DNA of 64,000 nucleotides, from contig OZ243969.1 in assembly GCA_965214675.1 (NCBI GenBank), positions 1,797,511 through 1,861,510 of the forward strand. The letters are read 5' to 3'. This document shows, piece after piece, positions 1,720 through 59,676 of this stretch (its first letter is position 1; each line of letters starts with the position of its first letter). Source of the stretch: Gammaproteobacteria bacterium. Its GTDB lineage: Bacteria > Pseudomonadota > Gammaproteobacteria > UBA4575. A model generated the notes under the pieces. It was not told the origin of the DNA. It saw only the letters and a program-made list of their open reading frames with translations, and searched no databases. A program made the translations under genes and the position numbers.

Positions 1720-1881
1720 CGGTATCTGTATTTTCAGTTTGTCCGGCCTATTCCAGGCACAAGTTCTTCCCAAACCGGAGTATGCGGATATACAGCTTTA
1801 ACAGAGGTACTGTCACCGAAGCGGGATCTTGCTTGAAGGGTCGGCATGCGGGTTCCGCATGACATGAGTTTCTATTGGATT

Positions 1882-2931: not shown

Positions 2932-3105
2932 TCTAAAAATGAGAATTCGTGTTGACCTATATATAAAGAGGTCGACAGGGTAAATCAAGCCGGAGCATTA
3001 CCAGCGAATTAGGTTTGTGGGGTGTAAGATGGTCGTCATAAGAAAAAGTAATCACATCGCTGCTTTCATGTATAGCGTAGGTACAGGTACGAGGATGACT
3101 CATCC

Positions 3106-10856: not shown

Positions 10857-10969
10857 TTGACAGAATCCTGTAAAGAACAGAAGGCTGTGCTGGTCCTGCG
10901 TTAAGCTTCGTGTTCTTTCTCACCGTATGGCAGGGATACTCCGCAGATAAGGTTGTACAGTTCACAACG

Positions 10970-12073
10970 ATGTTGAAATACAAAGGCCAAAAGGATTATG
11001 TGCACGGAGACGATACCTGCCTTGGCGTAATGATTGTAAATCTGGGAACACCCGATGCGCCGACAATCCGAGCAATTCGAAAATTTCTTGCAGAGTTTTT
11101 GTGGGATCCAAGGGTTGTCGAATTGCCAAGGGCCTTGTGGTGGTTGATCTTGCATTTGGCGGTACTGCAGTTGCGGCCTCGCAAAAAAGTCGAGTCTTAT
11201 GCCAAAATCTGGACCGAAGAAGGTTCGCCGCTTCTGGTAATTGGCAAAAAACAGGAATCCGCATTACAGGCCGCCTTGGAAGGGACTTGTGTGGGCAGGG
11301 TAAGGGTTGTTCTCGCGATGCGATATGGGGAGCCCTCGATAACATCTGCATTGCGGGTTCTGCAGGAAAACAATGCACGTCGAATCCTGGTGCTTCCCAT
11401 GTACCCGCAGTATTCTGCCAGTACGACAGCTTCTACATTTGATGGGTTGGCAAAGGAACTGGAAGGATTAAGATGGATTCCGGAAATACGCATGGTCAAC
11501 TGTTATGGCGCAGAACCTGAGTACATTGATGCCTGTGCTGATCGCATTCGTTCGTATTGGGAGCATCATCCGCGCAGCCAGAAGCTGTTGTTTTCTTTTC
11601 ACGGACTGCCGAAGCGGAGCCTTGTGCAGGGGGACCCATATCACTGTGAATGTCAGCAAACCGCACGGTTGATCGCAGAACAACTTGATTTAAAACCCGA
11701 AGAATGGGTACTTACCTTCCAATCACGATTCGGTATGGCCGAATGGCTGCAACCCTATACTGATAAAACCCTTAAAACGCTACCTTCTAAAGGAATCGAG
11801 TCAGTCGATGTGTTTTGCCCGGGATTTTCAGCGGACTGTATCGAGACCCTCGAAGAAATCGATATTCAGAATCATGAGATATTTTTGCAAAGTGGAGGAA
11901 AGTCATTCAATTACATCCCAGCCCTGAATGACACACCTGCTCACATCCAGGCCCTTACACAGATTATCTCCAGGCATATACAGGGATGGCCGGAATGTAC
12001 ACGGAGCCCTAGAACCCCCGAAGAGCGGGAAACCATTCGGCAACGTGCACAGCAGTTAGGCGCTAAACACTAG
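10970..12073 (+). CDS. hemH: ferrochelatase
   Basis: VNLGTP, LAMRYGEP, PMYPQYSAST, FSFHGLP, FQSRFG..EWLQPYT, ADCIETLEEI. Confidence 0.96.
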   Translation: MLKYKGQKDYVHGDDTCLGVMIVNLGTPDAPTIRAIRKFLAEFLWDPRVVELPRALWWLILHLAVLQLRPRKKVESYAKIWTEEGSPLLVIGKKQESALQAALEGTCVGRVRVVLAMRYGEPSITSALRVLQENNARRILVLPMYPQYSASTTASTFDGLAKELEGLRWIPEIRMVNCYGAEPEYIDACADRIRSYWEHHPRSQKLLFSFHGLPKRSLVQGDPYHCECQQTARLIAEQLDLKPEEWVLTFQSRFGMAEWLQPYTDKTLKTLPSKGIESVDVFCPGFSADCIETLEEIDIQNHEIFLQSGGKSFNYIPALNDTPAHIQALTQIISRHIQGWPECTRSPRTPEERETIRQRAQQLGAKH

Positions 12074-12093
12074 AGATATGCGCTGATAGATCA

Positions 12094-12975
12094 TCACTTG
12101 AGTTCACTGAGCACTTGCCGGCAAATGTTCTCAGCCTGCCGGGCATAATTGCCTCCAAACAAATTAAAGTGGTTCAGGACGTGATAAAGATTGTAGAAAT
12201 CCTTGCGCACCTGGTAGCCGTTGTCCAGCGGATAGGACTCTGCATAGGCACTATAAAATTCCCGGCTGAACCCTCCGAATAGCTCGGTCATGGCGAGATC
12301 GGTTTCCCGGTCTCCGTAGTAGCATGCCGGATCAAATACTACTGGGCGTGCATTCTTATCAAAGCTGAAATTTCCTGACCAGAGATCACCATGCAGCAAG
12401 CTGGGTCTGGGCAAGTGGCTTTCAAACAGCCTATCCATATCTCCTAAAAGACAATCACCTTGTTCAAGTAATTCGCGGGGTGCACAGTTGTGTTTTGCCA
12501 GGTTCAGTTGATAGGCAAGGCGTCCATGGCGCCAGAATGAAACCCAGTCGGTGTTCTTCGTGTTTGGCTGTGGGGTTGTACCGATCCAGTTATCCTCAAA
12601 CCAGCCATAGTAGCTTTCTGTATGCTGATGCAGCTGGGCGAGCAACCTGCCCAATGTTTCATCTGACCCAGCAGGTTGGAGTTCCAGAAATTCAAGCAGC
12701 AGATAACAGTACGTGCCGGTTTGTCCATGGGCAACGGGTAATGGGACACGCAAGGTTCTTGTCTCAGCCAGCGCCCTCAGGTTCTGCGCTTCACCTTGCA
12801 GCATGGCGTGCATGCCCGGATGATGGACTTTCAGAAAATAGGTCTTTGTTTTGCACTCAACCTTGAAGGTCTCGCAAATGTCACCGCCAGCAACCGAAGT
12901 GATACTTTCGATGTGCAGGGGTTCTGCAAGCTTGTGGTTCAGTTGATCTTCTAGTACCTGGACATTGATGCGCAT
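12094..12975 (-). CDS. fructosamine kinase family protein
   Basis: VAGGDI, YFLK, DNWIGTTPQPN, LLHGDLWSGN, FDPACYYGDRETDLAMTELFGGF. Confidence 0.9.
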   Translation of the reverse strand: MRINVQVLEDQLNHKLAEPLHIESITSVAGGDICETFKVECKTKTYFLKVHHPGMHAMLQGEAQNLRALAETRTLRVPLPVAHGQTGTYCYLLLEFLELQPAGSDETLGRLLAQLHQHTESYYGWFEDNWIGTTPQPNTKNTDWVSFWRHGRLAYQLNLAKHNCAPRELLEQGDCLLGDMDRLFESHLPRPSLLHGDLWSGNFSFDKNARPVVFDPACYYGDRETDLAMTELFGGFSREFYSAYAESYPLDNGYQVRKDFYNLYHVLNHFNLFGGNYARQAENICRQVLSELK

Positions 12976-12987
12976 GGCCGTATCGTT

Positions 12988-13890
12988 TCAGGCTTCAAGT
13001 ACACTTAACCAGCGCTCCCGTCGATATTTGCTGAACCCGAATTTATCGAACAACTTGTCGAGAGCCGGGAAATCGGGAGGGGTTCGTTCCAGGCTGATAT
13101 CTTCAGAAAAATCGATATCACAATATATGGTCGTCAACTTTTTGTATAAAAGAAGTTGTTCCTGATGACGCTCAATCAATCCCTGGATACGCTTGGCGCC
13201 ACGGATGTTCATTGAGCTGATTTTTGCGCAGTTGCTGAGGAGTTCTTCGAGGCTGGAAAACTGATTCAACAGCTTTGCTGCCGTGGCCATACCAATGCCA
13301 GGGGCGCCTTCAATGTTGTCCGTCTTATCCCCTGCGATAGCAAGCTGATCTGCGATTTGGCTGGGATAGACGCCGAACTGTTTTTTGATTTGGGGGATAG
13401 AGTTGCGCAGGCCCTTGGCAAAATTCCACAGAATATCGTTTTCAAAAATAAGCTGTGCCAAGTCCTTGTCCGAGGTCAAGATGGTAATCGGGTGTCCGCG
13501 CTCACGCATTCGCCGGGCCAGTGTGCCTATGATGTCGTCCGCTTCATATTGAGGTTGTGCAGTTTCAAACAGGCCCGATGCCTGTAATAATTCACGACAG
13601 TAGGCAAACTGCCGCTTGAGTTCTTTGGGTGCAGGTTCGCGGTTCGCCTTGTATTCAGGATACAGCCGATTGCGAAAGGAGGTGCTGAGACTCTCATCAA
13701 AAGCGAAGGCAACATGTCTGGCTTGTGTTTGTCTTAGAAACTGGTAAACGAAGTCGGCGAAGCCATATACGGCGTTGACCGGTTCATTATCCGGATTCAC
13801 GACATGGTCTGGTACGGTAAACCAGGCGCGAAACACGTAGATACTCGAGTCAATCAAGTAGACCTTGTCATGTGTCATTTGAGGTGCCAA
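12988..13890 (-). CDS. stand-alone 5'-3' exonuclease / flap endonuclease (ExoIX-like)
   Basis: LIDSS.Y.FRA, AFD, YPEYKANR, EADDIIGT, SDKDL, GDKTDNIEGAPGIG. Confidence 0.88.
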   Translation of the reverse strand: MAPQMTHDKVYLIDSSIYVFRAWFTVPDHVVNPDNEPVNAVYGFADFVYQFLRQTQARHVAFAFDESLSTSFRNRLYPEYKANREPAPKELKRQFAYCRELLQASGLFETAQPQYEADDIIGTLARRMRERGHPITILTSDKDLAQLIFENDILWNFAKGLRNSIPQIKKQFGVYPSQIADQLAIAGDKTDNIEGAPGIGMATAAKLLNQFSSLEELLSNCAKISSMNIRGAKRIQGLIERHQEQLLLYKKLTTIYCDIDFSEDISLERTPPDFPALDKLFDKFGFSKYRRERWLSVLEA

Positions 13891-13928
13891 AAAAATTCAG
13901 CCGGTGTGGACCAGTATATACAACGTAT

Positions 13929-15380
13929 TCAGCGGACTAATTTGATCCATTGGCTAGGTTCGGGTTCACCCTCTGGAAACATGCCATTCAGCAAACGCAA
14001 TTGTTCCACGGGGTGATTCGTAAGGGTTGATTGATCTGCCAGGGACGCAAATGTATCTCCTGGCTTTGCGCGAACAAGCCGGATTCGCTGAGGTTCGGCA
14101 AGCTTTCTTTCTGAACCTTTGAGGTTTCGCATGCTGTTGACAGTACGTAACACTGCACTATCGTGGCGGTCCAGGGCACTTTGGTTTTTGCCTATGGCTG
14201 CAATTGTGTAGATGCGTGTATCCTGAAAAAGAACTGCAACACGTCCTGGTCGGGCGGTGCCTTTCACGTTTAAAGAAGTACGTCCGGTATAGCCTGTAAA
14301 GTCCGCGGTCTGTATGTCTTTACCTTGCCTGAGCCGCCCCTGAGTTCGCTGCACCAGATATTCCCTTGGCGTCAGGTATCTGTTCAGGTCCTCAACTGTG
14401 ATTTGCAACTGCAGTTCCCGGTTTGCCGGTCCTGCCGCCAGGCGGTCTGGCCGGTTGTCTACTTTCCAGCCTTCGGGAAACACGATTACGAGGTCCAGGT
14501 CGCCATGATAGAACTTGTGACCACGCAACACACCATCGCTGGCTGAGGGACCTACTGGGAGCCCATCGATGAAGCCTAAGAATTCATCACGATTGACCTT
14601 GCGAGCGACCGGTGACTTGAATTTGTTTGCAGCCTGTACCACTTCCTTGAAACGCGTGTCGTTATCAGGATGTGTTGAAAATACACCATGATAGATGTTG
14701 GGCTCACGCCCCTCCTGTTTTGCCAGCTTCCTTTCAAACTCTTCTTGAGATTTCAGGATACCGACAACACTGAGCATCTCTTTGGGATCATAGCCAACTC
14801 GGGCAAGATACTCAGCGCCAAGCCGATCGGCTTCCAACTCGTGCTTGCGTCCATAGCCACGGATCAATGCCATGCTACCGATGCCTGCAGCCTGTGAGGC
14901 CACCTGACTTCCTGTCAAGACTTCAATACCTTTGCCCAGCAAATCAGCCACAGCCCCCGTACTTTGTTGCTGAACACCATGGCGTGCCGTGACATGTCCT
15001 ATCTCATGACCGAGAACGCCTGCCAATTCAGCCTCGGTATTCATGTACGCCATGATTCCACGCGTAATGTAGATATAGCCTCCGGGCAGAGCGAATGCAT
15101 TAATCTCGGGGCTGTCTAGAACGGTCACATGGAAAACCAGGTCCTTGCGGTGGCTCTGTTGCGATAAATCCCTAACGATCCCTGCGACATAGTTCTGCAA
15201 TTCAGGATCGTTGTAAGGGCGATACTGGCGCATGAGATCCTGATGCGCCCGCTTGCCCAGGCTGATCTCTTGGTCTTCCGTCATCAGGACCAAGTCCTGC
15301 TTGCCTGTAACGGGGTTGGTAGCGCACCCTGAAAGGAGTAGTCCTCCAGCAAGGATCAGGTACGTTATAAAAGCTTTCAT
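13929..15380 (-). CDS. M48 family metalloprotease lipoprotein with C-terminal LysM-like region
   Basis: Lipobox LSGC, NAFALPGG, HEIGH, E.EAD, STHP; C-terminal GDTFASLA...LRLLNG. Confidence 0.88.
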   Translation of the reverse strand: MKAFITYLILAGGLLLSGCATNPVTGKQDLVLMTEDQEISLGKRAHQDLMRQYRPYNDPELQNYVAGIVRDLSQQSHRKDLVFHVTVLDSPEINAFALPGGYIYITRGIMAYMNTEAELAGVLGHEIGHVTARHGVQQQSTGAVADLLGKGIEVLTGSQVASQAAGIGSMALIRGYGRKHELEADRLGAEYLARVGYDPKEMLSVVGILKSQEEFERKLAKQEGREPNIYHGVFSTHPDNDTRFKEVVQAANKFKSPVARKVNRDEFLGFIDGLPVGPSASDGVLRGHKFYHGDLDLVIVFPEGWKVDNRPDRLAAGPANRELQLQITVEDLNRYLTPREYLVQRTQGRLRQGKDIQTADFTGYTGRTSLNVKGTARPGRVAVLFQDTRIYTIAAIGKNQSALDRHDSAVLRTVNSMRNLKGSERKLAEPQRIRLVRAKPGDTFASLADQSTLTNHPVEQLRLLNGMFPEGEPEPSQWIKLVR

Positions 15381-43954: not shown

Positions 43955-44647
43955 ATGGCAGAGAAACATAAGCCCGCACCTATGGTGGATGAAGTAAGTG
44001 ACTTTGAGGTTCTGGAAGTTGCCGTTCGAGAGTTGGCTATTGAAAAGGGTCTTTTTAGCGCTGAAGATCATCGGCGTTTTGCAGAATTTGCACATAGCAT
44101 AGGCCCTTTACCTGCAGCGCGACTCGTGGCGAAGTCCTGGCTGGACCCTGAGTTTAAAAAACTGGCTCTGGAAGACGGGTTTACCGCTAGCAAGGAAGTT
44201 GGAATCGACTGGCTGAATCCGACAGGATTTGGGACACCCAGTGATTATTGTGACCTGCGTGTCCTTGAAAACACGCCGTCGGTGCATCATGTGGTCGTGT
44301 GCACATTATGTTCATGCTATCCCAGACCGATCCTGGGCCATTCTCCTGAGTGGTACAGGACTCCAAATTATCGTCGCAGACTGGTTCGCTGGCCACGCCA
44401 GGTGTTGTCAGAGTTTGGTTTGCAAATTCCAGCAGATGTTGAGGTCAGGGTTGAGGACTCGAATCAGAAATGCCGTTTCATGGTCATGCCTATGCGGCCT
44501 GAGGGCACTGAGGACTGGAGTGAAGATCAGCTGGCTGAAATTGTTACACGTGATTGCATGCTGGGAGTTGCATTACCACATCCGGAGCGCAAGGCTGATG
44601 ACAAGCGGCCCGTACATAAGGCAGCCAACCCGGTTCACGGGCATTGA
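43955..44647 (+). CDS. scnC: thiocyanate hydrolase gamma subunit (Co-binding)
   Basis: HKPAPMV, FGTPSDYC, VVCTLCSCYPRPILG (Co-type metal motif), NYRRRLVRWPRQVL. Confidence 0.95.
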   Translation: MAEKHKPAPMVDEVSDFEVLEVAVRELAIEKGLFSAEDHRRFAEFAHSIGPLPAARLVAKSWLDPEFKKLALEDGFTASKEVGIDWLNPTGFGTPSDYCDLRVLENTPSVHHVVVCTLCSCYPRPILGHSPEWYRTPNYRRRLVRWPRQVLSEFGLQIPADVEVRVEDSNQKCRFMVMPMRPEGTEDWSEDQLAEIVTRDCMLGVALPHPERKADDKRPVHKAANPVHGH

Positions 44648-44653
44648 TGCAGC

Positions 44654-45049
44654 GTGATGGACGACGCCACAGAAAAAAATGCCCCAGGAGCTGATCCGGC
44701 GAGCAATATGCCGGAATTTTCTTCTGTGTCTTTGCTGGAGAAGATTCGCACGCAGGGAAAAGCCTGGAAGGACCTGGCAAATCAATACGGTGTGGACAAC
44801 CCGGATCCTCCATGGAAGATAAATTTGGATTCAACCTGTGAGGCACTTTCTGCTGAGCAGTGTGCGCTCCCGGTACTGGAGCGCAGAAATGAAGAGGATA
44901 CGCTCTCCGAGAGCATGTACAAAGACGTTCCTTATCCGGAACGACAACTGCTCGCCCTGGCTCATTCCATGATTCAGCGCGGCTTGATAGATGAGGATGA
45001 ACTTGCGCTTCGCATGAAGTATGTCAGCAAGCGACTAAACAGCGTCTGA
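44654..45049 (+). CDS. thiocyanate hydrolase activator (P15K-like)
   Basis: Immediately after scnC; PPWK..LD..C, RR..ED.L...Y...PYPE.QLLALAHS...RGLIDE.EL..RM, similar to NHase beta-N-like accessory proteins. Confidence 0.75.
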   Translation: MMDDATEKNAPGADPASNMPEFSSVSLLEKIRTQGKAWKDLANQYGVDNPDPPWKINLDSTCEALSAEQCALPVLERRNEEDTLSESMYKDVPYPERQLLALAHSMIQRGLIDEDELALRMKYVSKRLNSV

Positions 45050-45125
45050 CGGGGCAATCACAGGTAGCAGGGCATCAGGTAGAGAGCATGACTGAAAGTC
45101 AACGATAACAAGGACAACATACTCT

Positions 45126-45488
45126 ATGGCAAATATATTCATGAAGTCTTCATGGGGGAGTGATGATCCCACACGGGCAGCTATGGTGTTTGGGCATGCA
45201 AATGCCTTGGCAAGTGCGGGACATGAGGTACGGATATTCCTACTCGGGGAAGCAGTCTGCCTGGCCCGGCCGGTAGTGCGGGAAAATATGATTCCCGTGG
45301 GGTGGCCGTCTGTTGCGACTCAATGGGATGAGGCAATTGGGAATGGGGTCAGGATTGAATGCTGTGGTGCATGCTCCAGAGCCAGAGGACTAAGTGAAGA
45401 CGACATGGCAAAAGCCGGTGCACAACCCGGCAATCCTGATACCTTTGTGGAAAGCGTAGAATGGTCCGATAAGATCATTGCCGAATGA
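45126..45488 (+). CDS. DsrE-family protein
   Basis: GSDDPTRA, GHEVRIFLLGEAV, CCGAC..ARG, WSDKII. Confidence 0.82.
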   Translation: MANIFMKSSWGSDDPTRAAMVFGHANALASAGHEVRIFLLGEAVCLARPVVRENMIPVGWPSVATQWDEAIGNGVRIECCGACSRARGLSEDDMAKAGAQPGNPDTFVESVEWSDKIIAE

Positions 45489-45613
45489 ACATGAGACAGG
45501 ATCGAACAAGTTTGGCTTGGTTCTTGCTTGGGACACTATGCAGGGAATGCATGTAGAGAGATGAAGCAGCTCGTAATATTAGGTATAGACCGACACAGAG
45601 GTAGGAAGCATAT

Positions 45614-46444
45614 ATGGAAAAACGCAAAGGCGTACACATTAATATCAAGGATCTTACCCACCGCTATACCTCTAAGAGCCCCATTACCTTTGAGAAAGTC
45701 AACATTGAGGCCGACCCGGGAGAGGCACTGGTCATCATTGGAAGGTCCGGTTGCGGCAAGTCAACCCTTTTGCATATTTTGGCAGGCTTGCTGGAAAAAT
45801 CGAGCGGGATTGTCCGTCTCGACGAGAAAGATGTTACGGAGCCTTCATCCCATTGGATAATGATGTTTCAGGCGCCTCATCTTTTCCCGTGGATGACGGT
45901 GGAACAGAATGTAGGTACTGGCTTGCGGTTTGCCCATTGGCCAGAAAAAAAAATGAAAAAACGCATTGCCGAGGTGATTAATCTGGTGAGTCTTGACGAG
46001 TACGCAAAAAACAATACGCAAGATCTGTCGGGTGGTCAGCAGCAGCGTGTTGCGCTCGCACGCTCCCTGGTAATGGAGCCTGACCTGCTCCTGCTTGACG
46101 AGCCTTTTTCTGCACTAGATGCTTTTACTCGCGCGACGCTGCAAAAAGATGTCAGGGCCATTTCAAAGCAACTGGGGTTCAACTTGGTAATGGTGACTCA
46201 CGATATAGATGAAGCGGTGATCATGGCTGATCGCGCTCTGGTTATGGCAGGTTCGCCTGGCAAAATTGTCCATGACTTCAAGGTGGATCTTGATGATCCG
46301 CGTGAAAGACAGGATCCAAAGGTACAGGCGATGCGTGTGAGCTTAATGGAAATTTTCCATCATGCTGCAGGCGTTTCTGTGAACGATTCCAACATGGAAG
46401 GAGATGATGCTAACCAATCGGACATAGAGTTGGTTGGTAACTAA
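45614..46444 (+). CDS. NitT/TauT-type ABC ATP-binding protein
   Basis: GRSGCGKST, LFPWMTV, LSGGQQQR, LDEPFSALD. Confidence 0.92.
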   Translation: MEKRKGVHINIKDLTHRYTSKSPITFEKVNIEADPGEALVIIGRSGCGKSTLLHILAGLLEKSSGIVRLDEKDVTEPSSHWIMMFQAPHLFPWMTVEQNVGTGLRFAHWPEKKMKKRIAEVINLVSLDEYAKNNTQDLSGGQQQRVALARSLVMEPDLLLLDEPFSALDAFTRATLQKDVRAISKQLGFNLVMVTHDIDEAVIMADRALVMAGSPGKIVHDFKVDLDDPRERQDPKVQAMRVSLMEIFHHAAGVSVNDSNMEGDDANQSDIELVGN

Positions 46445-46510
46445 AAGAATGTCTGAAAGTGCACTTCAGACCCTATTAACTACGAGAGTAACGATTTGAG
46501 GAATTCCGAC

Positions 46511-47803
46511 ATGAAGAAAATTTACGAGAAACATGGCGATGGGGTACAGATTGATGATCCCAAACTCGCCATAGAGTATGACCCGCTGTTTAAGGGGGCG
46601 TTAGGTACCGGTATCAACCGGCGCGAATTGCTGCAGGTAGGAGGACTTGCTGCATTGGGTGGCGGGGCAGGGGCCTTGCCCATGCCAAGCTTTGCCAAGA
46701 AAAAATGGGACCCGGTAATCAAGATCGGCTACATCCCCATCACGGATGCGGCAGCTCTGCTGATTGCGCATGATCAGGGCTATTTCAAGGACGAAGGCAT
46801 TGATTCTGTGAAGCCAACACTGATCCGTGGTTGGTCGCCCTTGGTAGAAGCCTTTGCAGCTCATCGCTTCAACCTGACCCATATGCTGATCCCGATTCCA
46901 GTGTGGATGCGTTATAACAACAAGTATCCGATCAAGATCACTGCTTGGGACCACACCAACGGTTCGGCGGTATTGGTAGGTAAGAAGAGCGGTATCAATG
47001 AACCCAAGGACTTTGGCGGTAAACAGTTTGCTGTGCCGTACTGGTACTCGATCCACAACATTGTTTCGCAAAGAATCATGAAAGCGGCTGGTATCAAGCC
47101 AGTGATCAGACCACAGTCTGCGAAGCTGGCAGATGATGAGTGCAACTTCCTGGTGTTGGCACCGCCGTCCATGCCGCCTGCACTGGCTGCGGGAACGATT
47201 GATGGCTACTGTGTGGCTGAGCCGTTTAACGCCCTGGGCGAGCTTAAAGCGGGTGGAAAGGTACTACGCTTTACAGGTGATGCATGGAAAGGACACCCTT
47301 GCTGCGTTGTAGTCATGCATGAAGAGGATGCTATGGACCCCGATCGTGCTGCATGGGCACAGGGAGTACATAATGCGGTAGTCAGAGCCCAGATTCATCT
47401 GGCTGAAAACAGGGAAGCCATGTCGGAACTGCTCTCGCGTGACGGTAAAGGCTATTTGCCTGTCCCGAAAGAGGTTGTGAAGCGAGCAATGATGTTTTAT
47501 GACCCTGCGTACTACAAAAATCCTCAGGCAATCAAGCATCCTGAATGGGATCAGAACCGTATTGATTTTCAGGCATGGCCATACCGGTCAGCGACAGAGC
47601 TCGTCGTTAGCGATCTGAAAGAAACGGTAGTTACGGGGGATGCGCGGTTCCTGGACACGCTCACGCCTCAGCATGTAGCCAATGACCTTGTCAATTATGA
47701 CTACGTGAAGAACGCATTGGAGTCACATCCCAAGTGGAGAAACGATGCGAGCGTGCCGCAAGAAGGTGATCCGTATATCCGTTCGGAGGTGTTTGTACTT
47801 TGA
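46511..47803 (+). CDS. CmpA/NrtA-like ABC substrate-binding protein, Tat signal
   Basis: NRRELL twin-Arg, KIGYIPITDA, HTNGSA, AVPYWYSIHN, VAEPFNA, HPCCV. Confidence 0.88.
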   Translation: MKKIYEKHGDGVQIDDPKLAIEYDPLFKGALGTGINRRELLQVGGLAALGGGAGALPMPSFAKKKWDPVIKIGYIPITDAAALLIAHDQGYFKDEGIDSVKPTLIRGWSPLVEAFAAHRFNLTHMLIPIPVWMRYNNKYPIKITAWDHTNGSAVLVGKKSGINEPKDFGGKQFAVPYWYSIHNIVSQRIMKAAGIKPVIRPQSAKLADDECNFLVLAPPSMPPALAAGTIDGYCVAEPFNALGELKAGGKVLRFTGDAWKGHPCCVVVMHEEDAMDPDRAAWAQGVHNAVVRAQIHLAENREAMSELLSRDGKGYLPVPKEVVKRAMMFYDPAYYKNPQAIKHPEWDQNRIDFQAWPYRSATELVVSDLKETVVTGDARFLDTLTPQHVANDLVNYDYVKNALESHPKWRNDASVPQEGDPYIRSEVFVL

Positions 47804-48657
47804 GTAACGGAAAAGTAGATGTAGCTGATGTAGATGCAGGCACAAGTACGGCTGCATCTTCAAAAGCTAGGTCAAATACTTCGACTGCAAAGTCGATGGG
47901 TAAGAGCCTGTTCAATTGGGCAGCTGGCTTGGGGATCCTGTTTGTATTTTGGTGGTTTGGAGGCTATCTCATTGAGATCAATCCTGACACCACGAACTTC
48001 AAGGACTTTGGGCCAATTCCAACGTTCAAGGCATTCCCGGAGCTTTTTGCGATCGGCAAGATACAGGCAGCAGTCACAACAAGTGGTTATCGCTTGGGTG
48101 CCGGTCTGCTTATAGCCATTGTCGCGGGTGTACCCATTGGGATTTTGTTGGGTCGTAGTACGATTTTCCGTGAACTCAGTAATTCGCCGTTTCAGTTGAT
48201 CCGTATGATTAGCCCGCTTTCATGGGAGCCAATCGCGGTCATCGTATTTGCCACCTGGAATGGAGCAATCGTATTTCTGATTGCTGTAGCCGCCATCTGG
48301 CCAGTCGTGTTTGCTACGGCAGCAGGCTTGGCCAAGGTGGACCCGGCCTGGTTCAAGGTTGCCCGCAACCTAGGGGCAAAGCCATGGCATATGGTGACGG
48401 AAATTATCCTGCCCGCAATTTTGTTTGATATCCTGACCGGTGTTCGACTGGCATTGGGTGTCGGATGGATTGTACTGGTGCCGGCAGAATTTCTTGGAGT
48501 CACTTCAGGGCTTGGCTACTCCATAGCAGATGCCAGGGAAACACTCTCCTATGACCAACTGACTGCGATGGTGCTCACTATTGGTGTAATGGGCTACATA
48601 CTTGACAGCTCCCTTGCGATGCTGATCAAACGCTACAGTTGGCACCATGCAAGGTGA
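47800..48657 (+). CDS. NitT/TauT-type ABC permease
   Basis: RMISPLSW.P, VARNLGA, VPAEFLGVTSGLGY. Confidence 0.9.
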   Translation: MSNGKVDVADVDAGTSTAASSKARSNTSTAKSMGKSLFNWAAGLGILFVFWWFGGYLIEINPDTTNFKDFGPIPTFKAFPELFAIGKIQAAVTTSGYRLGAGLLIAIVAGVPIGILLGRSTIFRELSNSPFQLIRMISPLSWEPIAVIVFATWNGAIVFLIAVAAIWPVVFATAAGLAKVDPAWFKVARNLGAKPWHMVTEIILPAILFDILTGVRLALGVGWIVLVPAEFLGVTSGLGYSIADARETLSYDQLTAMVLTIGVMGYILDSSLAMLIKRYSWHHAR

Positions 48658-48720
48658 GCGAATACTGGATAAATGAAAATTAATTAGTGCTTTAAACTAA
48701 ATCGAGGACAAGAGATAACT

Positions 48721-48915
48721 ATGCAAAATCAGATAGCAACCAGTTCAAAACTGCGTGATGTAACGATATCAAAGGCTACGTGGCGGCCACTACAGATTGC
48801 CGCCGCCTTTTTGTTGGGGGCCGTAATCTTGTATGGTGTGGGATTTGCAAATTCAGCTGCAGTGCACAATGCAGCCCATGATGTGCGCCACACCCAAGTA
48901 TTCCCTTGCCACTAG
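48721..48915 (+). CDS. cbtB: second CbtB-family cobalt transporter subunit
   Basis: One TM followed by VHNAAHDVRHTQVFPCH. Confidence 0.9.
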   Translation: MQNQIATSSKLRDVTISKATWRPLQIAAAFLLGAVILYGVGFANSAAVHNAAHDVRHTQVFPCH

Positions 48916-49220: not shown

Positions 49221-49250
49221 AAAAAAAGAGGGGTGCAATCTGCACCCCTC
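49221..49250 (-). terminator. rho-independent terminator of porin gene
   Basis: Minus strand GAGGGGTGCA-GAT-TGCACCCCTC-TTTTTT. Confidence 0.85.
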
Positions 49251-52551: not shown

Positions 52552-52959
52552 TTACAGGTTGAGATCGAATGTCACGCGGTCCAAAATTTTATCCTGCTGT
52601 ATCGATAGCGTGACTTGCCACTGTCCTCCCATATGGAATTTGATCCCCTCCAGAAGGTACCCACCGTTACCAAGGTTTTGGGTAATCCTGGGTCGGGTAG
52701 GTAGTCCATGGTCATGCTCTGGCATGCCTCCCTCGATTCGGACAATGGCATCGGTGACTGGCTCACCCGAGCGGTGTTGGATGTGAAGGGTCCAGGCGTG
52801 CATGGTGTTGATCACGATTGGATCAAGATGACTGGTGAACCGGACCTCAAAGTGTTGCTTCTCTGTAAGGCGTGACTTCTCAACTCTGGACTGTACAGAA
52901 TGATCTTCAGCCCATACCAGTGTAGAAAACAGGAAAAGTGCGACAAGGACTGTTTTCAT
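52552..52959 (-). CDS. YtkA/FixH-like periplasmic protein
   Basis: Signal peptide, GGMPEHDHGLPT.P, G.Y..EG.KFHMGG.W. Alternative start at 53004. Confidence 0.75.
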   Translation of the reverse strand: MKTVLVALFLFSTLVWAEDHSVQSRVEKSRLTEKQHFEVRFTSHLDPIVINTMHAWTLHIQHRSGEPVTDAIVRIEGGMPEHDHGLPTRPRITQNLGNGGYLLEGIKFHMGGQWQVTLSIQQDKILDRVTFDLNL

Positions 52960-52972
52960 CAAGTTCAGGGAT

Positions 52973-53605
52973 TTAGTCAATGCGATGAGGTCGGTTGATG
53001 CCATTCAGAAATCTGCGCATACGGGCGTAACCACCACTCATTAGCCAGTAGTTCAGCTGCAGGAATGCGGCGAGGCCTATAAACCATGGAATCAGGCCCC
53101 AGTCTGCACCGCCGACCCGAAATGGAAAGATGGCAGTATAGGTATTTCTGCCTGTAGGACTCTTGGCGGTGACAATACCAATAAAATTTCCCTCCTCAGT
53201 AAACTCGTGCAATGCCAGGAACACACCATCTTGCTGGACCTGTGGAGGTTGGTAGAAAACGGTATTACGAGGCAGGTCTTGTTTTATATCGTTCCAGTTT
53301 ACGAACCGCCCGTAATTATTTACATCCTTGATGATACGGAATTCAACCGGAACTTCTCTAAGACTGTTATGCAGGTATTCCAGAACAAACACGCTCTCAT
53401 CCGCGTGGGGTATGTCCTCGCATAATTCCTCATGTCGGCTTATTTGGGGCTGATAGATTTTGAAATGAGCCTTGTAAAAACCTATCTGGATGACACAAAG
53501 GTCATCCTCCAGAAATACACCCCCATGGGCATGAGCGTTCTGCCATGGCCCTACAGCTAGGAATACCAGAAGAAGTGTTAAGCGTGCCGGGGAGAAAAGT
53601 ATCAA
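52973..53605 (-). CDS. PmoD/AmoD-like periplasmic copper-protein homologue
   Basis: Signal AHA|HGG, D.C.I.IG....HF..YQP.....E.CEDIP, LREVPVEFRII.D, FPF.VG, C-terminal TM. Confidence 0.7.
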   Translation of the reverse strand: MILFSPARLTLLLVFLAVGPWQNAHAHGGVFLEDDLCVIQIGFYKAHFKIYQPQISRHEELCEDIPHADESVFVLEYLHNSLREVPVEFRIIKDVNNYGRFVNWNDIKQDLPRNTVFYQPPQVQQDGVFLALHEFTEEGNFIGIVTAKSPTGRNTYTAIFPFRVGGADWGLIPWFIGLAAFLQLNYWLMSGGYARMRRFLNGINRPHRID

Positions 53606-53772
53606 AAGTCAGGCAGCGTTTTCGCGCGATGTACAGGTGCGGCCAGCATAGCAAACACGCCCGTACTTTTGTGGTCGCTGGATTAGGGTTTGACTGTACC
53701 GACGTCGACTACCCGGCTGGTCTGCATGTCAGAAGGTAATGCATGAGCCTCAGGCTGGCGATACGGGAAAAA

Positions 53773-54138
53773 CTAGTGCCCGGATGCGTGGTGATGCTCA
53801 ACAATGGGGGCTTCATCCACCCCGAAAAACTCAGCACGCGACAGATAGGTGTAGTCCCCTTCGATTGACATCATGCCAATGAGAACCAGCAATGCCAGGG
53901 GCGGCAATAAAATCGCCGTGATCAAAGCAAGCCGTTCCCAGGCCATGTGCATGAAAATCGCGACAATGAACCCTGCCTTCAGCATCATGAAGATCAGAAT
54001 CAGGTTCCATCTCAGGTACCCCTGCAACTGTAAATAATCCACGAAGTAGGAAGCCGCACTGAATACGAATAACAGCAACCAAATTCCAATGTAAATGCTG
54101 AGTGGATGTTGTTGACCTTCTTCTGTTGCAGCCGCCAT
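53773..54138 (-). CDS. cytochrome c oxidase subunit IV family protein
   Basis: QHPL..Y..IW.LLF, M.LKAG.IVA.FMHM.WER. Confidence 0.88.
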   Translation of the reverse strand: MAAATEEGQQHPLSIYIGIWLLLFVFSAASYFVDYLQLQGYLRWNLILIFMMLKAGFIVAIFMHMAWERLALITAILLPPLALLVLIGMMSIEGDYTYLSRAEFFGVDEAPIVEHHHASGH

Positions 54139-55516: not shown

Positions 55517-57265
55517 CTAAACGTCGCCTTCACCTTTTGTGTACCGGCTGGGGATTTCGGTTTGCGGAATGAAATCTTCCTTGGCGCCAGGGACACTGTA
55601 GGAGTATGCCCAGCGATATACCACAGGCAGCTCCTTGCCCCAGTTTCCGTGCTTTGGAGGGTAATCCGCAGTTTGCCATTCAATCGTGGTCGCACGCCAT
55701 GGGTTGCGTGATGACTTTCTGCCTTTGAAAATACTCCAGAAGATATTGATCAGGAACAGGAACTGGGCTGCTGCAACAACCAATGCAGCTATGGTAATAC
55801 TGACGTTCGCTGACTGTACGCTATCCGGCAGGAATTCCGTGGTACCGTTGGCGTAATACCTGCGGGGCACACCCAGTATGCCGATGTAGTGCATGGGCAG
55901 GTAAATCGCATAGGTGCCCAGGAAGGTCAGCCAGAAATGGATTTTCCCCATCGTGTCATTGAGCATCCGCCCGGTGAGCAGGGGGAACCAGTGATAGATT
56001 CCTCCAAATACGACCAGGAAGGGGGACACACCCATCACCATGTGGAAATGGCCGACTACGAAGTAGGTGTCAGAAAGTGGTACATCCACAACTACATTTC
56101 CCAAGAACAGTCCCGTTATTCCCCCATGGATGAATGTAAAGATAAAACCGATCGAAAACAGCATGGGCACCGTAAGATGTATATTCCCACGCCATAGGGT
56201 AAGTACCCAGTTGTAAACCTTGATCGCCGTCGGAACTGCAATGATCAGTGTTGTAGTGGCAAAGAAAAAGCCGAAGTACGGGTTCATTCCACTGACGTAC
56301 ATGTGGTGCGCCCATACGATGAAGCTCAGGCCTCCGATGGCAACAATCGCCCAGACCATCATGCGGTAGCCAAAGATGTTTTTACGGGCGTGTGTACTGA
56401 TCAGGTCGGAAACGATCCCGAATGCGGGTAGCGCCACGATGTAAACCTCCGGATGGCCAAAGAACCAGAAGAGGTGCTGAAACAGTATCGGACTTCCTCC
56501 TTCATGTGACAGGTTCTCGCCCAGCGAAGAGATTGCCGGCATGAAAAAGCTGGTCTCCAGAGTCTTGTCGAGCGTCATCATGATGACGCTGACGAGCAGT
56601 GCCGGGAAGGCCAGCAAACCCAGGATTGTAGCCATGATGATGCCCCAGACAGACAAGGGCATACGCATCAGGGTCATGCCCCGTGTACGTGCCTGGAATG
56701 CAGTTGTGACATAGTTCAGCCCACCCATGGTGAACGCCACAACAAACAAGCCGAGCGATACGGTCATGCAGATGATGCCCCAGTCAGCACCCGGCGTACC
56801 TTCAGTAATTGCCTGTGGAGGGTACAAGGTCCAGCCTGCACCGGTAGGTCCTTCAGGAACAAAGAAACTCGCACATACCACGATGACTGACAACAGGTAC
56901 ACCCAGTAGCTCAGCATATTCATGTATGGAAAGGCCATATCGCGCGCTCCACACATCAGCGGCACAAGGACATTGCCGAATCCACCCAGGAAAAATGCGG
57001 TCAGCATGAAGACAATCATGATCATGCCGTGCATGGTCACCGCCTGGTAGTATTCGTCAGGCTGTATAAAGTCAAATACGCCCGGATAACCCAGTTGTAA
57101 TCGCATCAGGCCAGACAGGATCAGGGCAATCACTCCGACAGCAGTAGCAGTTATGATGTACTGGATACCAATGATCTTGTGATCTTGGCTCCAGACATAC
57201 ATACCAATCCATGTCTTCGGATGGGCAAGTTCTTGCTCTTTATCAGCTAATGCAACGTGTGCCAT
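55517..57265 (-). CDS. haem-copper oxidase subunit I, A1 type (CoxN-like)
   Basis: SQDHK, HGMIM, GWTLYPP, WFFGHPEVY, WAHHM, PTAIKV, GHFHMV, PRRY. Confidence 0.95.
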   Translation of the reverse strand: MAHVALADKEQELAHPKTWIGMYVWSQDHKIIGIQYIITATAVGVIALILSGLMRLQLGYPGVFDFIQPDEYYQAVTMHGMIMIVFMLTAFFLGGFGNVLVPLMCGARDMAFPYMNMLSYWVYLLSVIVVCASFFVPEGPTGAGWTLYPPQAITEGTPGADWGIICMTVSLGLFVVAFTMGGLNYVTTAFQARTRGMTLMRMPLSVWGIIMATILGLLAFPALLVSVIMMTLDKTLETSFFMPAISSLGENLSHEGGSPILFQHLFWFFGHPEVYIVALPAFGIVSDLISTHARKNIFGYRMMVWAIVAIGGLSFIVWAHHMYVSGMNPYFGFFFATTTLIIAVPTAIKVYNWVLTLWRGNIHLTVPMLFSIGFIFTFIHGGITGLFLGNVVVDVPLSDTYFVVGHFHMVMGVSPFLVVFGGIYHWFPLLTGRMLNDTMGKIHFWLTFLGTYAIYLPMHYIGILGVPRRYYANGTTEFLPDSVQSANVSITIAALVVAAAQFLFLINIFWSIFKGRKSSRNPWRATTIEWQTADYPPKHGNWGKELPVVYRWAYSYSVPGAKEDFIPQTEIPSRYTKGEGDV

Positions 57266-57352: not shown

Positions 57353-58708
57353 TTAAAACGTGTTGATATATGCAACCAGGTCATTGATTTTCTTATCATT
57401 CAGACTGAGCACCATGGACTCCATTTGTCGTCCGGTAGCATCCTGCGGGTGCTGTGCGCCACGTACCCCGTGTTTGAAATTCTTGAGCTGGGTTACCATG
57501 TACCAGTCACTCATGCCGGCAAGACGCGGTGCATTCACAGCCCAGCGGCCTTCACCCTGCTTGCCATGACACTTTCCACATGTAGTGTACAAGTCGCGAC
57601 CATTTTTCACATCGCCCTGGACAGTCTGGGCCGCCGGCTCATCGGGCAAGGTCTGAATGTATGCAGCGATATCTCGAATCAAGGTCTCATTAACCAGCCC
57701 TGCTGCCATCGGTGCCATCTGTTGACCCAGGAGGTCTTCGGGGTTTGAGCCTCGGATGCCGTCCCTGAAATAGGTCAACTGGCGTTCCAAATACCAGTCT
57801 TCCTGACCACTCAGCTTGGGTGCATTAAGTGCTTGAATACCCTCACCCTGTATGCCGTGGCACGCCGCACAAACCTGGTAATGGGCCTTGCCTGCCTCAG
57901 CATGCCCCGGCTTCTGCGCAACCAACATCGCATAGGTAGGTTGATGGGCGAGCCATTCATTAAATTGTTCCTCTTCGACTACGGTGACCTTGCCACGCAT
58001 GGTGTGATGACCGATACCACAAAGTTCTTCACAAAGAATCTCAAAGGTACCGAGACGCGTGGGGGTTAGCCATATCCAGGGAACCATGCCAGGGACCAGG
58101 TCCATCTTCACTCGAAACTGCGGTACTGTGAAATTGTGCAACACATCCTTGGAACGCAGCAGGAACTTGATCGGCAGACCTATCGGAATATGGACTTCGT
58201 TACCTTCGATGAGGACATCATCCTGTCCGTACGGATCTTCTTCGTTCATCCCGAAGGGGTTGTCAATACTGATCTTTCGGTTGTCTGAGGTGCCAAGCTG
58301 CCCGTCCTTGCCGGGGAAACGAAAGCTCCATTGCCACTGTTGCCCGACGACCTCTACAATTGCAGCGTTCTCCGGAGGGGAAACAAATTTGCCCCATACA
58401 ATAAGTCCGGGAGCAAGCATGGCCACCACTCCTACGGTGGTAATTGCAGTTAGCCAGCCTTCCAGTTTTTTGTTTTCAGGTTCGTAGCTGGCACGTTGAT
58501 TCTTGCCTTTGTTACGGTATTTGATAATGCAGTACGCCATGAACAGGTTGGCTGCGACAAAAACCACACCACACACAATGAAGGTGATCGTAACTGTCGT
58601 ATCGATGGCTCCCCAGTTCGAAGCGATTTCCGTGAAGTACCACGGGCTCATGAAATGGAATACAACGGAACCAACTACCAAAAAGATTAATATGATGGCC
58701 ATAGCCAT
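57353..58708 (-). CDS. cytochrome c oxidase subunit II (CoxM-like) fused to two cytochrome c domains
   Basis: CuA motif DVLH...CEELCGIGHHTM; CAACH and CGKCH. Confidence 0.92.
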   Translation of the reverse strand: MAMAIILIFLVVGSVVFHFMSPWYFTEIASNWGAIDTTVTITFIVCGVVFVAANLFMAYCIIKYRNKGKNQRASYEPENKKLEGWLTAITTVGVVAMLAPGLIVWGKFVSPPENAAIVEVVGQQWQWSFRFPGKDGQLGTSDNRKISIDNPFGMNEEDPYGQDDVLIEGNEVHIPIGLPIKFLLRSKDVLHNFTVPQFRVKMDLVPGMVPWIWLTPTRLGTFEILCEELCGIGHHTMRGKVTVVEEEQFNEWLAHQPTYAMLVAQKPGHAEAGKAHYQVCAACHGIQGEGIQALNAPKLSGQEDWYLERQLTYFRDGIRGSNPEDLLGQQMAPMAAGLVNETLIRDIAAYIQTLPDEPAAQTVQGDVKNGRDLYTTCGKCHGKQGEGRWAVNAPRLAGMSDWYMVTQLKNFKHGVRGAQHPQDATGRQMESMVLSLNDKKINDLVAYINTF

Positions 58709-58773
58709 GTTCAAGACTCCTTAGTCATTACAATACGGCGGCTACACTGGATTCAGCAGTGTGCGCATCCGGA

Positions 58774-59676
58774 TTACCAAATAATTCCACCACTGCATCT
58801 ACAGTCCACAAATATCAGGGTGAACAGTCCCAGCAAGTAAAAAATAGAGAAACCGAATAATCTGCGCGTGCTTTGATGCGTAATTGGTTTGCGCGCAAAG
58901 TCTATTGTCAAAAGTAAATACGCCAGTCCTAGTACAACACTGAGCACAAGATAAGTGGGGCCAACCACTTGTAGCCAGTACATGGTGGTACTTACGGGAA
59001 TTAGGACTATCGTGTACAGCAGCATTCGAATCTTCGTGGCCTGTTGCCCATTGGTCACAGGCAGCATGGGGAGCCCTGCCTGGCGGTACTCATCAGCTCG
59101 CAAGAGAGCCAGTGCCCAAAAATGTGGAGGCTGCCAAATGAACATGATCAGAAACATGGCCAATGCTGGCAAGCCCACGTCGTTTGTAACCGCTACCCAG
59201 CCAATGACGGGCGGCAGTGCACCGGCCACACCACCAATTTCAGTGCACAGGGGTGATGAGCGTTTCAGCCATACGGTGTAGATCATCACGTAAAAATAGG
59301 TCGTCGCAGCTGCAAGATATGCTGTCAGGGGGTTCACCAGATAAAAAAGAATTGCAAATGACCACAGACTGAGCATTACGCCCAGCCACAAGGCCTGCTG
59401 CGGATGCAGGCGGTAACAGGGTAATGCGCGCATGCGGGTTCTCGCCATACGCTTATCCACTTCCCTATCTACATAATTGTTGAGTGCACCACTTGCGGAG
59501 GATGCAAGACCCGTTCCCAACAAGGTGAAGATGATCAGATCCAAAGTTACAGCACCATTCCCAGCCAGCCACATCCCTGTAAATGTGGTGACCAGCACAA
59601 GTATGGTGATCCGTGGCTTGCACAACTCAACAAAGTCACTTGCCTGGTCACGTACGGCTGTAATGGTGGCATTCAC
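58774..59676 (-). CDS. cyoE: protohaem IX farnesyltransferase
   Basis: KPRI, NNYVDR.VD..M.RT..R, YT.WLKR, GALPPVIGW, WQPPHF, YRQAGLPMLP. Confidence 0.94.
   Translation of the reverse strand: MNATITAVRDQASDFVELCKPRITILVLVTTFTGMWLAGNGAVTLDLIIFTLLGTGLASSASGALNNYVDREVDKRMARTRMRALPCYRLHPQQALWLGVMLSLWSFAILFYLVNPLTAYLAAATTYFYVMIYTVWLKRSSPLCTEIGGVAGALPPVIGWVAVTNDVGLPALAMFLIMFIWQPPHFWALALLRADEYRQAGLPMLPVTNGQQATKIRMLLYTIVLIPVSTTMYWLQVVGPTYLVLSVVLGLAYLLLTIDFARKPITHQSTRRLFGFSIFYLLGLFTLIFVDCRCSGGIIW

Follow-up and report, generated by a model that had tools for sequence, protein, structure and literature searches.

A PmoD/AmoD-family protein encoded beside a cytochrome oxidase operon in a gammaproteobacterium and its association with a conserved three-gene module

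A true homologue of the PmoD/AmoD proteins is encoded directly behind a set of cytochrome oxidase genes in a gammaproteobacterium of the UBA4575 lineage (assembly GCA_965214675.1, contig OZ243969.1, positions 1,797,511 to 1,861,510; this whole stretch of 64,000 nucleotides is hereafter called the window). The likeness of the window protein to PmoD is far beyond chance, and in related genomes its gene forms a conserved unit with genes for a YtkA/CtaK-like protein and a MauG-type dihaem enzyme. The reading that we favour, and hold to be probable, is that the protein is a membrane-anchored periplasmic copper protein of the Cx9HxnC class of PmoD, acting in this three-gene module, and that the module is docked on the operon of the host's sole oxidase and serves that aa3-type enzyme. 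The role of PmoD/AmoD has been open since 2018, the proteins being discussed as possible electron donors or copper sources for particulate methane monooxygenase (pMMO) and ammonia monooxygenase (AMO).

Identity and metal-site residues of the PmoD-like protein

All features that a first, sequence-only reading had listed, namely a signal peptide, an HGG motif, C-x7-K-x-H-x14-C, CEDIP and a C-terminal transmembrane segment, were present in the open reading frame (ORF). Its hydrophobic leader ends in AHA, with His27-Gly-Gly as the predicted mature N-terminus, and the leaders of aligned homologues always end in a small-x-small pattern immediately before the His of HGG. The signal peptide was judged from the leader sequence, from a helix in the structural model and from this comparison of homologues; His27 stands directly after an A-x-A type cleavage site, and the mature protein would start with it. 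The motif residues follow in the order C37, x7, K45, A46, H47, x14, C62-E-D-I-P. A hydrophobic stretch at about 168-190 near the C-terminus is followed by Arg-rich, basic residues. The AlphaFold2 model, which was built on 77 homologues and has a mean predicted local distance difference test (pLDDT) score of 92.1, contains helices at 6-17 (the leader), 172-189 and 192-202.

When all PDB sequences were searched with phmmer, PmoD of Methylocystis sp. Rockwell (6cpd_A) was matched at E 5.4e-13 over residues 35-165, the next matches lying at E 1.6. A Foldseek search of the PDB with the model gave the same structure as best match (6cpd_B, E 9.4e-13, template modelling (TM) score 0.85 on the target), with runners-up at E 1e-4 or worse that included CrdA and AA10 lytic polysaccharide monooxygenases. 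No Pfam or NCBIfam model matched the protein. The PmoD/AmoD identity first proposed from the letters is thus borne out by profile-type and by structural similarity. The signal peptide, cupredoxin-like periplasmic domain, two conserved Cys and C-terminal membrane helix found here correspond to the published architecture of PmoD, in which a signal peptide precedes a periplasmic domain whose two cysteines are strictly conserved, and a helix lies at the C-terminus (Fisher 2018, PMC6189053; here and below, what is taken from this paper and from PMC9145763, PMC13344008, PMC11892367, PMC11951088 and PMC13058606 refers to the passages available).

In the phmmer alignment, K45 stands opposite the Met of the M-x-H motif of 6cpd, and C37, H47 and C62 stand opposite Cys41, His51 and Cys65. 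This Met belongs to the CuA ligand set of 6cpd and is Met49 in the numbering of Fisher 2018 (PMC6189053). The sequence-only reading had proposed an altered CuA-like site in which Met was changed to Lys, a view that the column does not sustain. Among the 120 closest homologues position 45 is K in 78, R in 16, Q in 10, S in 10, T in 3 and E in 3, and Met in none. In a set of 149 diverse representatives at 50% identity it is R in 30, K in 30, S in 15, T in 12, Q in 12 and E in 9, with others besides, and none of the 135 that cover the column has Met. K or R also occupies the position in homologues encoded directly after pmoB (L082-L085; Lys in L083 and L085). Because position 45 varies, is never Met and holds Lys beside pmoB too, the window protein is placed in the Cx9HxnC class, and it lacks the Cx7MxHxnC ligand set of the CuA-forming subclass. 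Lys45 was also considered as a new ligand and was ruled out, since the column is variable. In Fisher's set the Cx9HxnC class accounted for 22.2%; its representatives bound copper without a CuA spectrum, and CuA formation was confined to Cx7MxHxnC members (PMC6189053).

His27 occurs in all 112 close homologues that cover the column (120 listed, 8 gapped) and in 113 of the 126 diverse representatives covering it, from the set of 149. No substitution of C37 or C62 occurs among close homologues (77 of 77 and 120 of 120), and they are kept in 130 of 131 and 137 of 137 representatives covering the respective columns; of the close homologues 119 of 120 have H47, as do 119 of the 135 representatives. 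E63, D64 and P66 are also conserved, as is H79 within the close subfamily. For most members of the family, Supplementary Data 2 of Fisher 2018 has, ahead of the first Cys, a column 'H 1', which, from the column without its header, we assume to denote the N-terminal His; the published PmoD constructs had an N-terminus lengthened by two vector residues, and in the PmoD crystal the two Cys were disulfide-bonded (PMC6189053). Judging from the conserved His, Cys, Glu and Asp residues and from the published binding by Cx9HxnC members, the PmoD-like protein would be expected to bind copper, with these residues as its putative ligand set.

Genomic context and history of the family

The absence of pmo and amo genes from the window, noticed at the first reading, was confirmed and extends to the whole 1.87-Mb host genome (G000; one contig of 1,868,863 bases, 96.6% complete). 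No match to PF04744 (PmoB) or PF02461 (AmoA) was found in it, and no copper-containing membrane monooxygenase (CuMMO) is therefore shown for the host. As a positive control, PF04744 was run on two Methylococcales genomes in which a homologue of the window protein also occurs, and it picked up PmoB in both at E 1e-170; it gave no match in one Woeseiaceae genome or in two close relatives. The host has one PmoD-like gene, one gene for Sco, far from the operon, one for haem A synthase (CtaA) and a single match to haem-copper oxidase subunit I (PF00115), which is that of this operon. Profile searches of the genome found no PCuAC, Cox11, CopC, multicopper oxidase or PF00127 cupredoxin (plastocyanin/azurin type). 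On this inventory, the aa3-type oxidase is the only cuproenzyme found that the module could serve.

A word-seeded protein search returned 580 PmoD-like homologues, several of them fused to a YtkA domain. In a full scan of 1.84 billion representatives with a hidden Markov model, 625 clusters were matched at E <=1e-3, 420 at <=1e-10 and 106 at <=1e-30, and in contigs from one genome per species a relative was encoded in 257 stretches. All locus counts given below refer to the best 80 of these 257 stretches, which come nearly all from uncultured Gammaproteobacteria (Woeseiaceae, Pseudohongiellaceae, Pseudomonadales, Thiotrichales, Acidiferrobacterales and two Methylococcales). The loci were sorted by tblastn with the window proteins, a multicopper oxidase (MCO) and PmoB as queries, and by Pfam on 12 loci.

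In 26 of the 80 loci a cox operon lies upstream on the same strand; YtkA-like and MauG-like genes are present as well in 25 of these, the contig ending in the remaining one (L022). Thirty loci hold the YtkA-like gene, usually with the MauG-like gene, without cox, and the sequence available upstream is at least 6.9 kb in 23 of them and shorter in the rest. An MCO of about 555 residues follows the PmoD-like gene in 17 loci, and four more combine an MCO with nearby cox genes (divergent in L026, L027 and L031, on the same strand in L079), so that 21 loci in all are MCO-linked. Three have neither cox, module nor MCO. The PmoD-like, YtkA-like and MauG-like genes occur together in 52 of the 80 loci, four more ending at a contig edge, and these three genes are the conserved unit.

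Association of the first two partners goes as far as fusion. In 18 of the 80 loci the PmoD-like and YtkA-like parts are joined in a protein of 275-336 residues with two membrane helices between them; two of these ORFs run off the end of a contig, and the fusion status of L032 is ambiguous. When the 15 longest of 150 listed representatives were picked by length, 11 proved to be PmoD-like proteins fused to YtkA, one was fused to CopC, one had a CCG domain and two had no second domain. The pair P0266 and P0184 comprises the CopC fusion (295 residues) and the protein with the C-terminal CCG cysteine-rich domain (278 residues).

Further genes were seen near relatives of the window gene. In L034, L044 and L051 (about 10600-14200 in each locus) the MCO of about 555 residues is followed by an FG-GAP/beta-propeller protein of about 400 residues; L027 (about 900-3400) and L059 (about 10600-14200) carry this conserved MCO-linked set without the latter. 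A small cupredoxin-like ORF sometimes lies between the MCO and FG-GAP/beta-propeller genes, and in L034 and L044 genes for a pyrroloquinoline quinone (PQQ) dehydrogenase and a dihaem cytochrome c are located divergently upstream of the set. In a Methylococcales metagenome-assembled genome (MAG), genes of the MbnB/TglH/ChrH family and DUF2063 (L062:13211-14827) lie about 2.6 kb from a stand-alone PmoD-like gene, such a pair being known from clusters for copper-binding modified peptides.

Co-occurrence with CuMMO was assessed at two levels. Among the genomes behind the 80 loci, PF04744 was matched in two (0 of the first 40 and 2 of the other 40), both Methylococcales. The remaining 78 of these best related genomes are without PmoB, a count on which MAG incompleteness bears, and on this genomic context the proposal that the family has a role broader than pMMO and AMO is well supported. 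In a survey of the class, based on an even sample of 400 genomes (G253 being extra and unscored), 18 genomes gave a match to the PmoD-like profile and 13 encoded PmoB. All 13 PmoB genomes had a match, in agreement with Fisher 2018 (PMC6189053); three of the 13 are unpublished (G044, G146, G313), and the tallies rest partly on them. A match without PmoB was found in five genomes, namely the host, the other two members of its family (G155, G322), G366 and G209. In six PmoB genomes (L082-L087) the immediate neighbour of a divergent pmoB is a strong match, at E 1e-43 to 1e-60. The gene order in four of these loci (L082-L085, from G108, G235, G291 and G016) is pmoB, PmoD-like, multicopper-oxidase-like, and the PmoD-MCO pair thus occurs within CuMMO clusters also.

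The history of these contexts was approached with a quick IQ-TREE phylogeny (93 rows, 204 columns, LG+C20, SH-aLRT support), placed on a midpoint root that was not inferred. Duplicates L093, L095 and L096 were excluded from the tree, and L047 and L049 are absent, their ORFs being cut by contig ends. Distant copies from CuMMO genomes and the pmoB-adjacent rows fall outside a clade of 79 rows (support 99). Within that clade the MCO-linked rows come first and a YtkA/MauG clade of 56 rows (support 90) is nested among them; nested in turn within the latter is a cox-operon clade of 25 rows (support 89), which includes the window protein. Linkage to cox is seen also in L050 and L066, in a separate subclade, and several outer rows sit on long branches. 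Since the cox-linked clade is nested, its linkage appears derived rather than ancestral, and the tree points to a late, lineage-specific docking on cox without being proof of it. The suggestion of an ancestral role at the oxidase, made at the first reading, is not upheld by this topology, and cox linkage as the ancestral state was rejected on it, given the midpoint root.

Within the window, the PmoD-like gene follows the subunit IV gene (coxIV) on the same strand after 167 nt. A consensus scan of this gap (53606-53772) found no terminator-like or promoter-like site, and its RNA showed no unusual folding (z +1.56). Downstream of the cox genes the hairpin listed in Table 1 stands alone as a strong terminator-like site, other matches on the minus strand having 5 to 7 pairs. 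From the common strand and the terminator scan, co-transcription of the PmoD-like gene with the cox genes is plausible. Two metatranscriptome runs of one study contain small portions of the window, and their contigs, 90-99% alike, cover parts of the MauG-like gene, of coxIV and of both coxIII genes. Contigs from both runs begin at 53712, 61 nt past the coxIV stop, too weak a sign to be taken as a transcript end.

Partner proteins and probable function

The YtkA-like gene has its likely start Met at 52959, the longest ORF starting at 53004, and its product matches PF13115 with 55.9 bits against a cut-off of 25.9. In an alignment of 27 sequences, numbered by the 135-residue form, H54, W56, G77-G78-M79, H82, H84, F108-H109-M110 and W114 are invariant (27 of 27), with H-x-W, GGM-P-x-H-x-H-G and F-H-M as invariant motifs. 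The leader ends in V-W-A before E-D-H and lacks the Cys that a lipoprotein anchor would require. The model of this protein has a pLDDT of 87.3, and its best fold match in Foldseek is Helicobacter pylori CrdA (E about 4e-6, TMt 0.78-0.79), in apo and silver-bound entries, the copper proteins P19, FetP and FtrA coming next. A complex prediction that combined the PmoD-like domain (27-170) with the mature YtkA-like protein scored 0.00, which gives no verdict and is evidence neither way.

For the dihaem enzyme the best NCBIfam match is TIGR04039 (MbnH family), with 164 bits, below the cut-off of 362.85. Its PDB matches are the Nitrosomonas europaea peroxidase 1iqc, 6e1c ('Di-heme enzyme') and MauG. 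Among the orthologues, 52 of 52 have both CxxCH motifs, at 89 and 275, and Tyr378. Opposite Tyr378 the alignments place M258 of 1iqc, which we take to be a haem ligand, and a Tyr of 6e1c. E-haem ligation by His and Tyr, instead of His and Met, is reported to mark MauG-type, protein-oxidising members as against canonical peroxidases (PMC11892367), and the window enzyme has both the two CxxCH motifs and, where the ligand of the E-haem is expected, Tyr and not Met. C320 and C332 are conserved in at least 95% of the 52 orthologues; the enzyme also carries an insertion and is about 100 residues longer than canonical peroxidases.

Combined, the class of the PmoD-like protein, the make-up of the module and the host inventory make it probable that the module provides copper to the aa3-type oxidase on whose operon it is docked. 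In such a relay the PmoD-like domain would capture periplasmic copper at a cluster of His27, H47, the C37/C62 pair and E63/D64, the cysteine pair possibly reducing Cu(II) to Cu(I), and would pass it on to the YtkA-like partner with its His and Met residues. This partner, together with the single Sco, would then load CuA of subunit II and perhaps CuB. The order of transfer is supported, rather than shown, by the analogy with YcnJ, where a CopC domain with an N-terminal His stands beside YtkA, and by the PmoD-like/CopC and PmoD-like/YtkA fusions. From the earlier proposal of copper delivery to haem-copper oxidases, the attachment to an oxidase operon stands; that the oxidase is the client we infer from context only, as we do the direction of transfer.

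Several observations weigh against this reading. The closest fold of the YtkA-like partner is that of a copper resistance protein, CrdA. Because the module occurs without cox in 30 of the 80 loci, 23 of them with at least 6.9 kb upstream, the oxidase is not its universal client, and in sister lineages the PmoD-like gene stands beside an MCO (21 of 80) or pmoB, pairings that fit general copper handling or detoxification equally well. The 167-nt gap after coxIV has room for a separate promoter, and no metatranscriptome contig lies on the PmoD-like or YtkA-like gene, although neither the absence nor the ends of a transcript can be read from contigs of this kind. That the conserved residues cluster in one site is taken over from the published description of 6CPD and would hold for the window protein by analogy. 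Finally, a simple chaperone relay does not account for the MauG-type enzyme.

The rival that survives best, while still improbable in our judgement, is a module for general copper homeostasis or detoxification, in which the PmoD-like and YtkA-like proteins would buffer or sequester copper, the MauG-type enzyme would handle peroxide, and the position behind cox would be incidental, with no part in oxidase assembly. It would accommodate the likeness of the YtkA-like model to CrdA, the MCO-adjacent relatives and the loci without cox. By contrast, it leaves to chance that the gene follows coxIV on the same strand in 26 loci, 25 of these rows forming one clade, and that no terminator-like site separates it from the cox genes. 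In the small host genome, moreover, no MCO, CopC or further periplasmic cuproprotein was found that such a module could protect or serve, nor were PCuAC and Cox11, so that the oxidase needs some chaperone; and the dihaem enzyme bears the His-Tyr signature of the protein-modifying MauG type, not that of detoxifying peroxidases.

A second alternative is that the protein is a redox-active cupredoxin which, through a site that is CuA-like or otherwise suited to electron transfer, feeds the oxidase or the dihaem enzyme, as has been proposed for operon PmoD. The cupredoxin-like fold is homologous to that of CuA-forming PmoD, and of the three published CuA ligands two have counterparts in C37 and H47. 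However, the third ligand, Met, is absent and its position unconserved, Cx9HxnC members bound copper without CuA features (PMC6189053), subunit II already has two cytochrome c domains for electron entry, and the fusions are to the chaperone-type domains YtkA and CopC, not to redox proteins; we regard this alternative as very unlikely. Least probable of all is an accessory structural subunit whose C-terminal helix would dock on the oxidase while its periplasmic domain shields or stabilises subunit II without copper transfer, since, although a single-pass membrane protein encoded directly after subunit IV would suit such a part and docking on pMMO has been raised for PmoD without strong evidence of association (PMC13058606), members of the same clade lack nearby cox (30 of 80) or adjoin MCOs (21 of 80) and so are not tied to one complex, and the invariant residues are His, Cys and acidic ones, of metal-ligand types.

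Copper supply by the three-gene module, the reading preferred here, also admits a bolder form that would give the dihaem enzyme a task. MbnH converts a Trp of MbnP to kynurenine, from which a copper site of His, Met and Kyn results (PMC11951088), and by analogy one of the partners in the module may be matured by the MauG-type enzyme. On a tentative and rather unlikely extension of this idea, the three genes would make up a maturation system for a copper chaperone of a new kind, in which the MauG-type enzyme oxidises an invariant residue of a partner to create a copper site, and a histidine-brace-like site of the PmoD-type protein, formed around its free N-terminal His, captures copper and hands it on. 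The most likely target of modification would then be the Trp of H-x-W or G-x-W in the YtkA-like protein, next to its His/Met cluster. On this view the published PmoD constructs could not have attained the native site, because of their extra N-terminal residues. Were the maturation system real, the function of PmoD/AmoD would be general copper supply, to CuMMO, multicopper oxidases and haem-copper oxidases, and not electron transfer to pMMO or AMO.

These findings bear on the long-standing question of PmoD/AmoD function. A large PmoD clade in CuMMO-free Gammaproteobacteria, found in three cuproenzyme contexts and with chaperone-domain fusions, argues for general copper handling. Such organisms offer simpler systems in which to test the role of PmoD, the host genome showing a single cuproenzyme; Woeseiaceae are abundant in sediments. 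For bacteria without PCuAC and Cox11, the proposed set for oxidase biogenesis consists of the PmoD-like, YtkA-like and MauG-type proteins and Sco. Should only the ordinary part of this account hold, it would still correct the stated taxonomic limits of the PmoD/AmoD family.

Layout of the window and comparison with known systems

The features of the operon and its surroundings are collected in Table 1. Two consecutive subunit III-like genes are part of the oxidase operon. The gene for a predicted outer-membrane protein of 550 residues is separated from the MauG-like gene by 302 nt, with a promoter-like site inside that interval. In 11 loci (L002-L012) it comes next behind the MauG-like gene, in L013 and L015 it stands farther downstream, and in the window it ends at the strong terminator-like hairpin; its membership of the module is uncertain, and it may be a porin linked to it.

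Table 1. Features of the oxidase operon, the three-gene module and the adjoining region, with positions in the window
Feature	Position	Strand	Evidence
Haem O synthase (CtaB/UbiA family)	58774..59676	-	PF01040, E 7e-62
Oxidase subunit II (CuA domain) with two cytochrome c domains	57353..58714	-	PF00116; PF00034, two stretches; TIGR02866 above cut-off
Haem-copper oxidase subunit I	55517..57265	-	PF00115, E 1e-139
Subunit III-like protein a, 221 aa	54848..55513	-	PF00510, E 1.5e-7; NF050119, E 5e-18
Subunit III-like protein b, 239 aa	54151..54870	-	PF00510, E 5e-18
Cytochrome oxidase subunit IV	53773..54138	-	PF03626, E 2e-11
PmoD/AmoD-family protein, 210 aa, Cx9HxnC class	52973..53605	-	TTG start; ORF reading, 6cpd match, model
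YtkA/CtaK-like periplasmic protein	52552..52959	-	PF13115, E 7e-15
MauG-type dihaem enzyme of the cytochrome c peroxidase family, 430 aa	51249..52541	-	PF03150, E 3.7e-42
Predicted outer-membrane protein, 550 aa	49294..50946	-	weak PF13372 match below cut-off (alginate-export-like)
Strong terminator-like hairpin	49228..49250	-	10 pairs, 7 G-C, T run

Elsewhere in the window, 43955..48915 encodes nitrile hydratase alpha/beta-like proteins (PF02979, PF21006), a DsrE-like protein, an NMT1-type binding protein (PF13379), a membrane ORF, the cobalt transporter subunit CbtB and an ABC ATPase-like ORF, the last named from its Walker motifs alone. This content suggests a cobalt-type nitrile or thiocyanate hydrolase system.

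In the literature the family has been tied to methane and ammonia oxidation. The main text of Fisher 2018 placed all PmoD genes in genomes with CuMMO operons and described the family as specific to methane and ammonia oxidisers, and its methods gave a co-occurrence with CuMMO of 98.5% for 860 sequences (PMC6189053); a 2026 review called PmoD 'unique to AOB and methanotrophs', AOB being ammonia-oxidising bacteria (PMC13058606). Full-text searches, limited in coverage, found no paper discussing PmoD outside methane and ammonia oxidisers. Supplementary Data 2 of Fisher 2018 lists three non-CuMMO genes from a Woeseiaceae bin, two of them annotated 'YtkA-like', at 326 and 306 residues, and also a gene from 'Gammaproteobacteria bacterium RIFCSPLOWO2_02_FULL_56_15'; these are labelled 'other' and 'Cx9HxnC', with figures that read as zero CuMMO operons (PMC6189053). 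From their annotation and lengths, the two YtkA-like genes in the supplement are fusions. In the neighbourhood sheet of the same supplement, the RIFCSPLOWO2 gene has oxidase subunits I and II next to it, and a gene of a second uncultured gammaproteobacterium has subunits I and III nearby (PMC6189053). Thus, the cox-adjacent arrangement is already recorded there, in two cases and uninterpreted.

The window protein shares with PmoD of 6CPD the signal peptide, the cupredoxin-like domain with two invariant Cys and the C-terminal helix, and its Cx9HxnC motif is one of the published motif classes of the PmoD/AmoD family. It differs from 6CPD PmoD in lacking the CuA-ligand Met and in the position of its gene, within a cytochrome oxidase operon and beside YtkA-like and MauG-type genes; its genome shows no CuMMO, the presence of which Fisher 2018 stated as a mark of the family. 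The nearest CuMMO-linked relatives found are the ORFs after divergent pmoB genes (L082-L087). Such pmoD/amoD-like ORFs after divergent CuMMO operons have been reported from uncultured Gammaproteobacteria, e.g. Pseudomonadales IMCC2047 and Rugosibacter MAGs (PMC11830464). Those of L082-L087 share with the window protein the HGG N-terminus, C-x9-H-F-T and C-E-D-(I/V)-P; by contrast, they lie directly after pmoB, are followed by an MCO in four of six cases and fall outside the 79-row clade.

Among oxidase assembly factors, YtkA (CtaK) is needed by Bacillus subtilis for CuA assembly at low copper; there it works together with Sco and fills the place of the missing PCuAC, and its function overlaps in part with that of the YtkA domain in YcnJ (CopC-CopD-YtkA) (PMC9145763, PMC13344008). 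The neighbour in the window is likewise a PF13115 protein with conserved His and Met, in a genome that, like that of B. subtilis, has Sco and shows no PCuAC, and the PmoD-like/YtkA and PmoD-like/CopC fusions parallel the architecture of YcnJ. Unlike CtaK, which is a lipoprotein, the YtkA-like protein of the window has a plain signal peptide, and its relatives may instead be tethered by fusion to the helix of the PmoD-like protein; in addition, the Bacillus passages available mention no PmoD-like partner. The MbnH-MbnP pair resembles the module in that a MauG-type gene, with MbnH as its best NCBIfam match and a Tyr at the E-haem ligand position, adjoins candidates for small periplasmic copper proteins, one of which, the YtkA-like partner, has an invariant Trp near His and Met residues. 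The enzyme, however, scores 164 bits against an equivalog cut-off of 362.85, and in NCBIfam neither the PmoD-like nor the YtkA-like neighbour matched the MbnP family. With PCuAC, Sco and Cox11 the module would share the proposed task of periplasmic copper delivery to CuA and CuB, although these proteins belong to folds and families unrelated to the PmoD-like protein, and of the three only Sco was found in the host genome.

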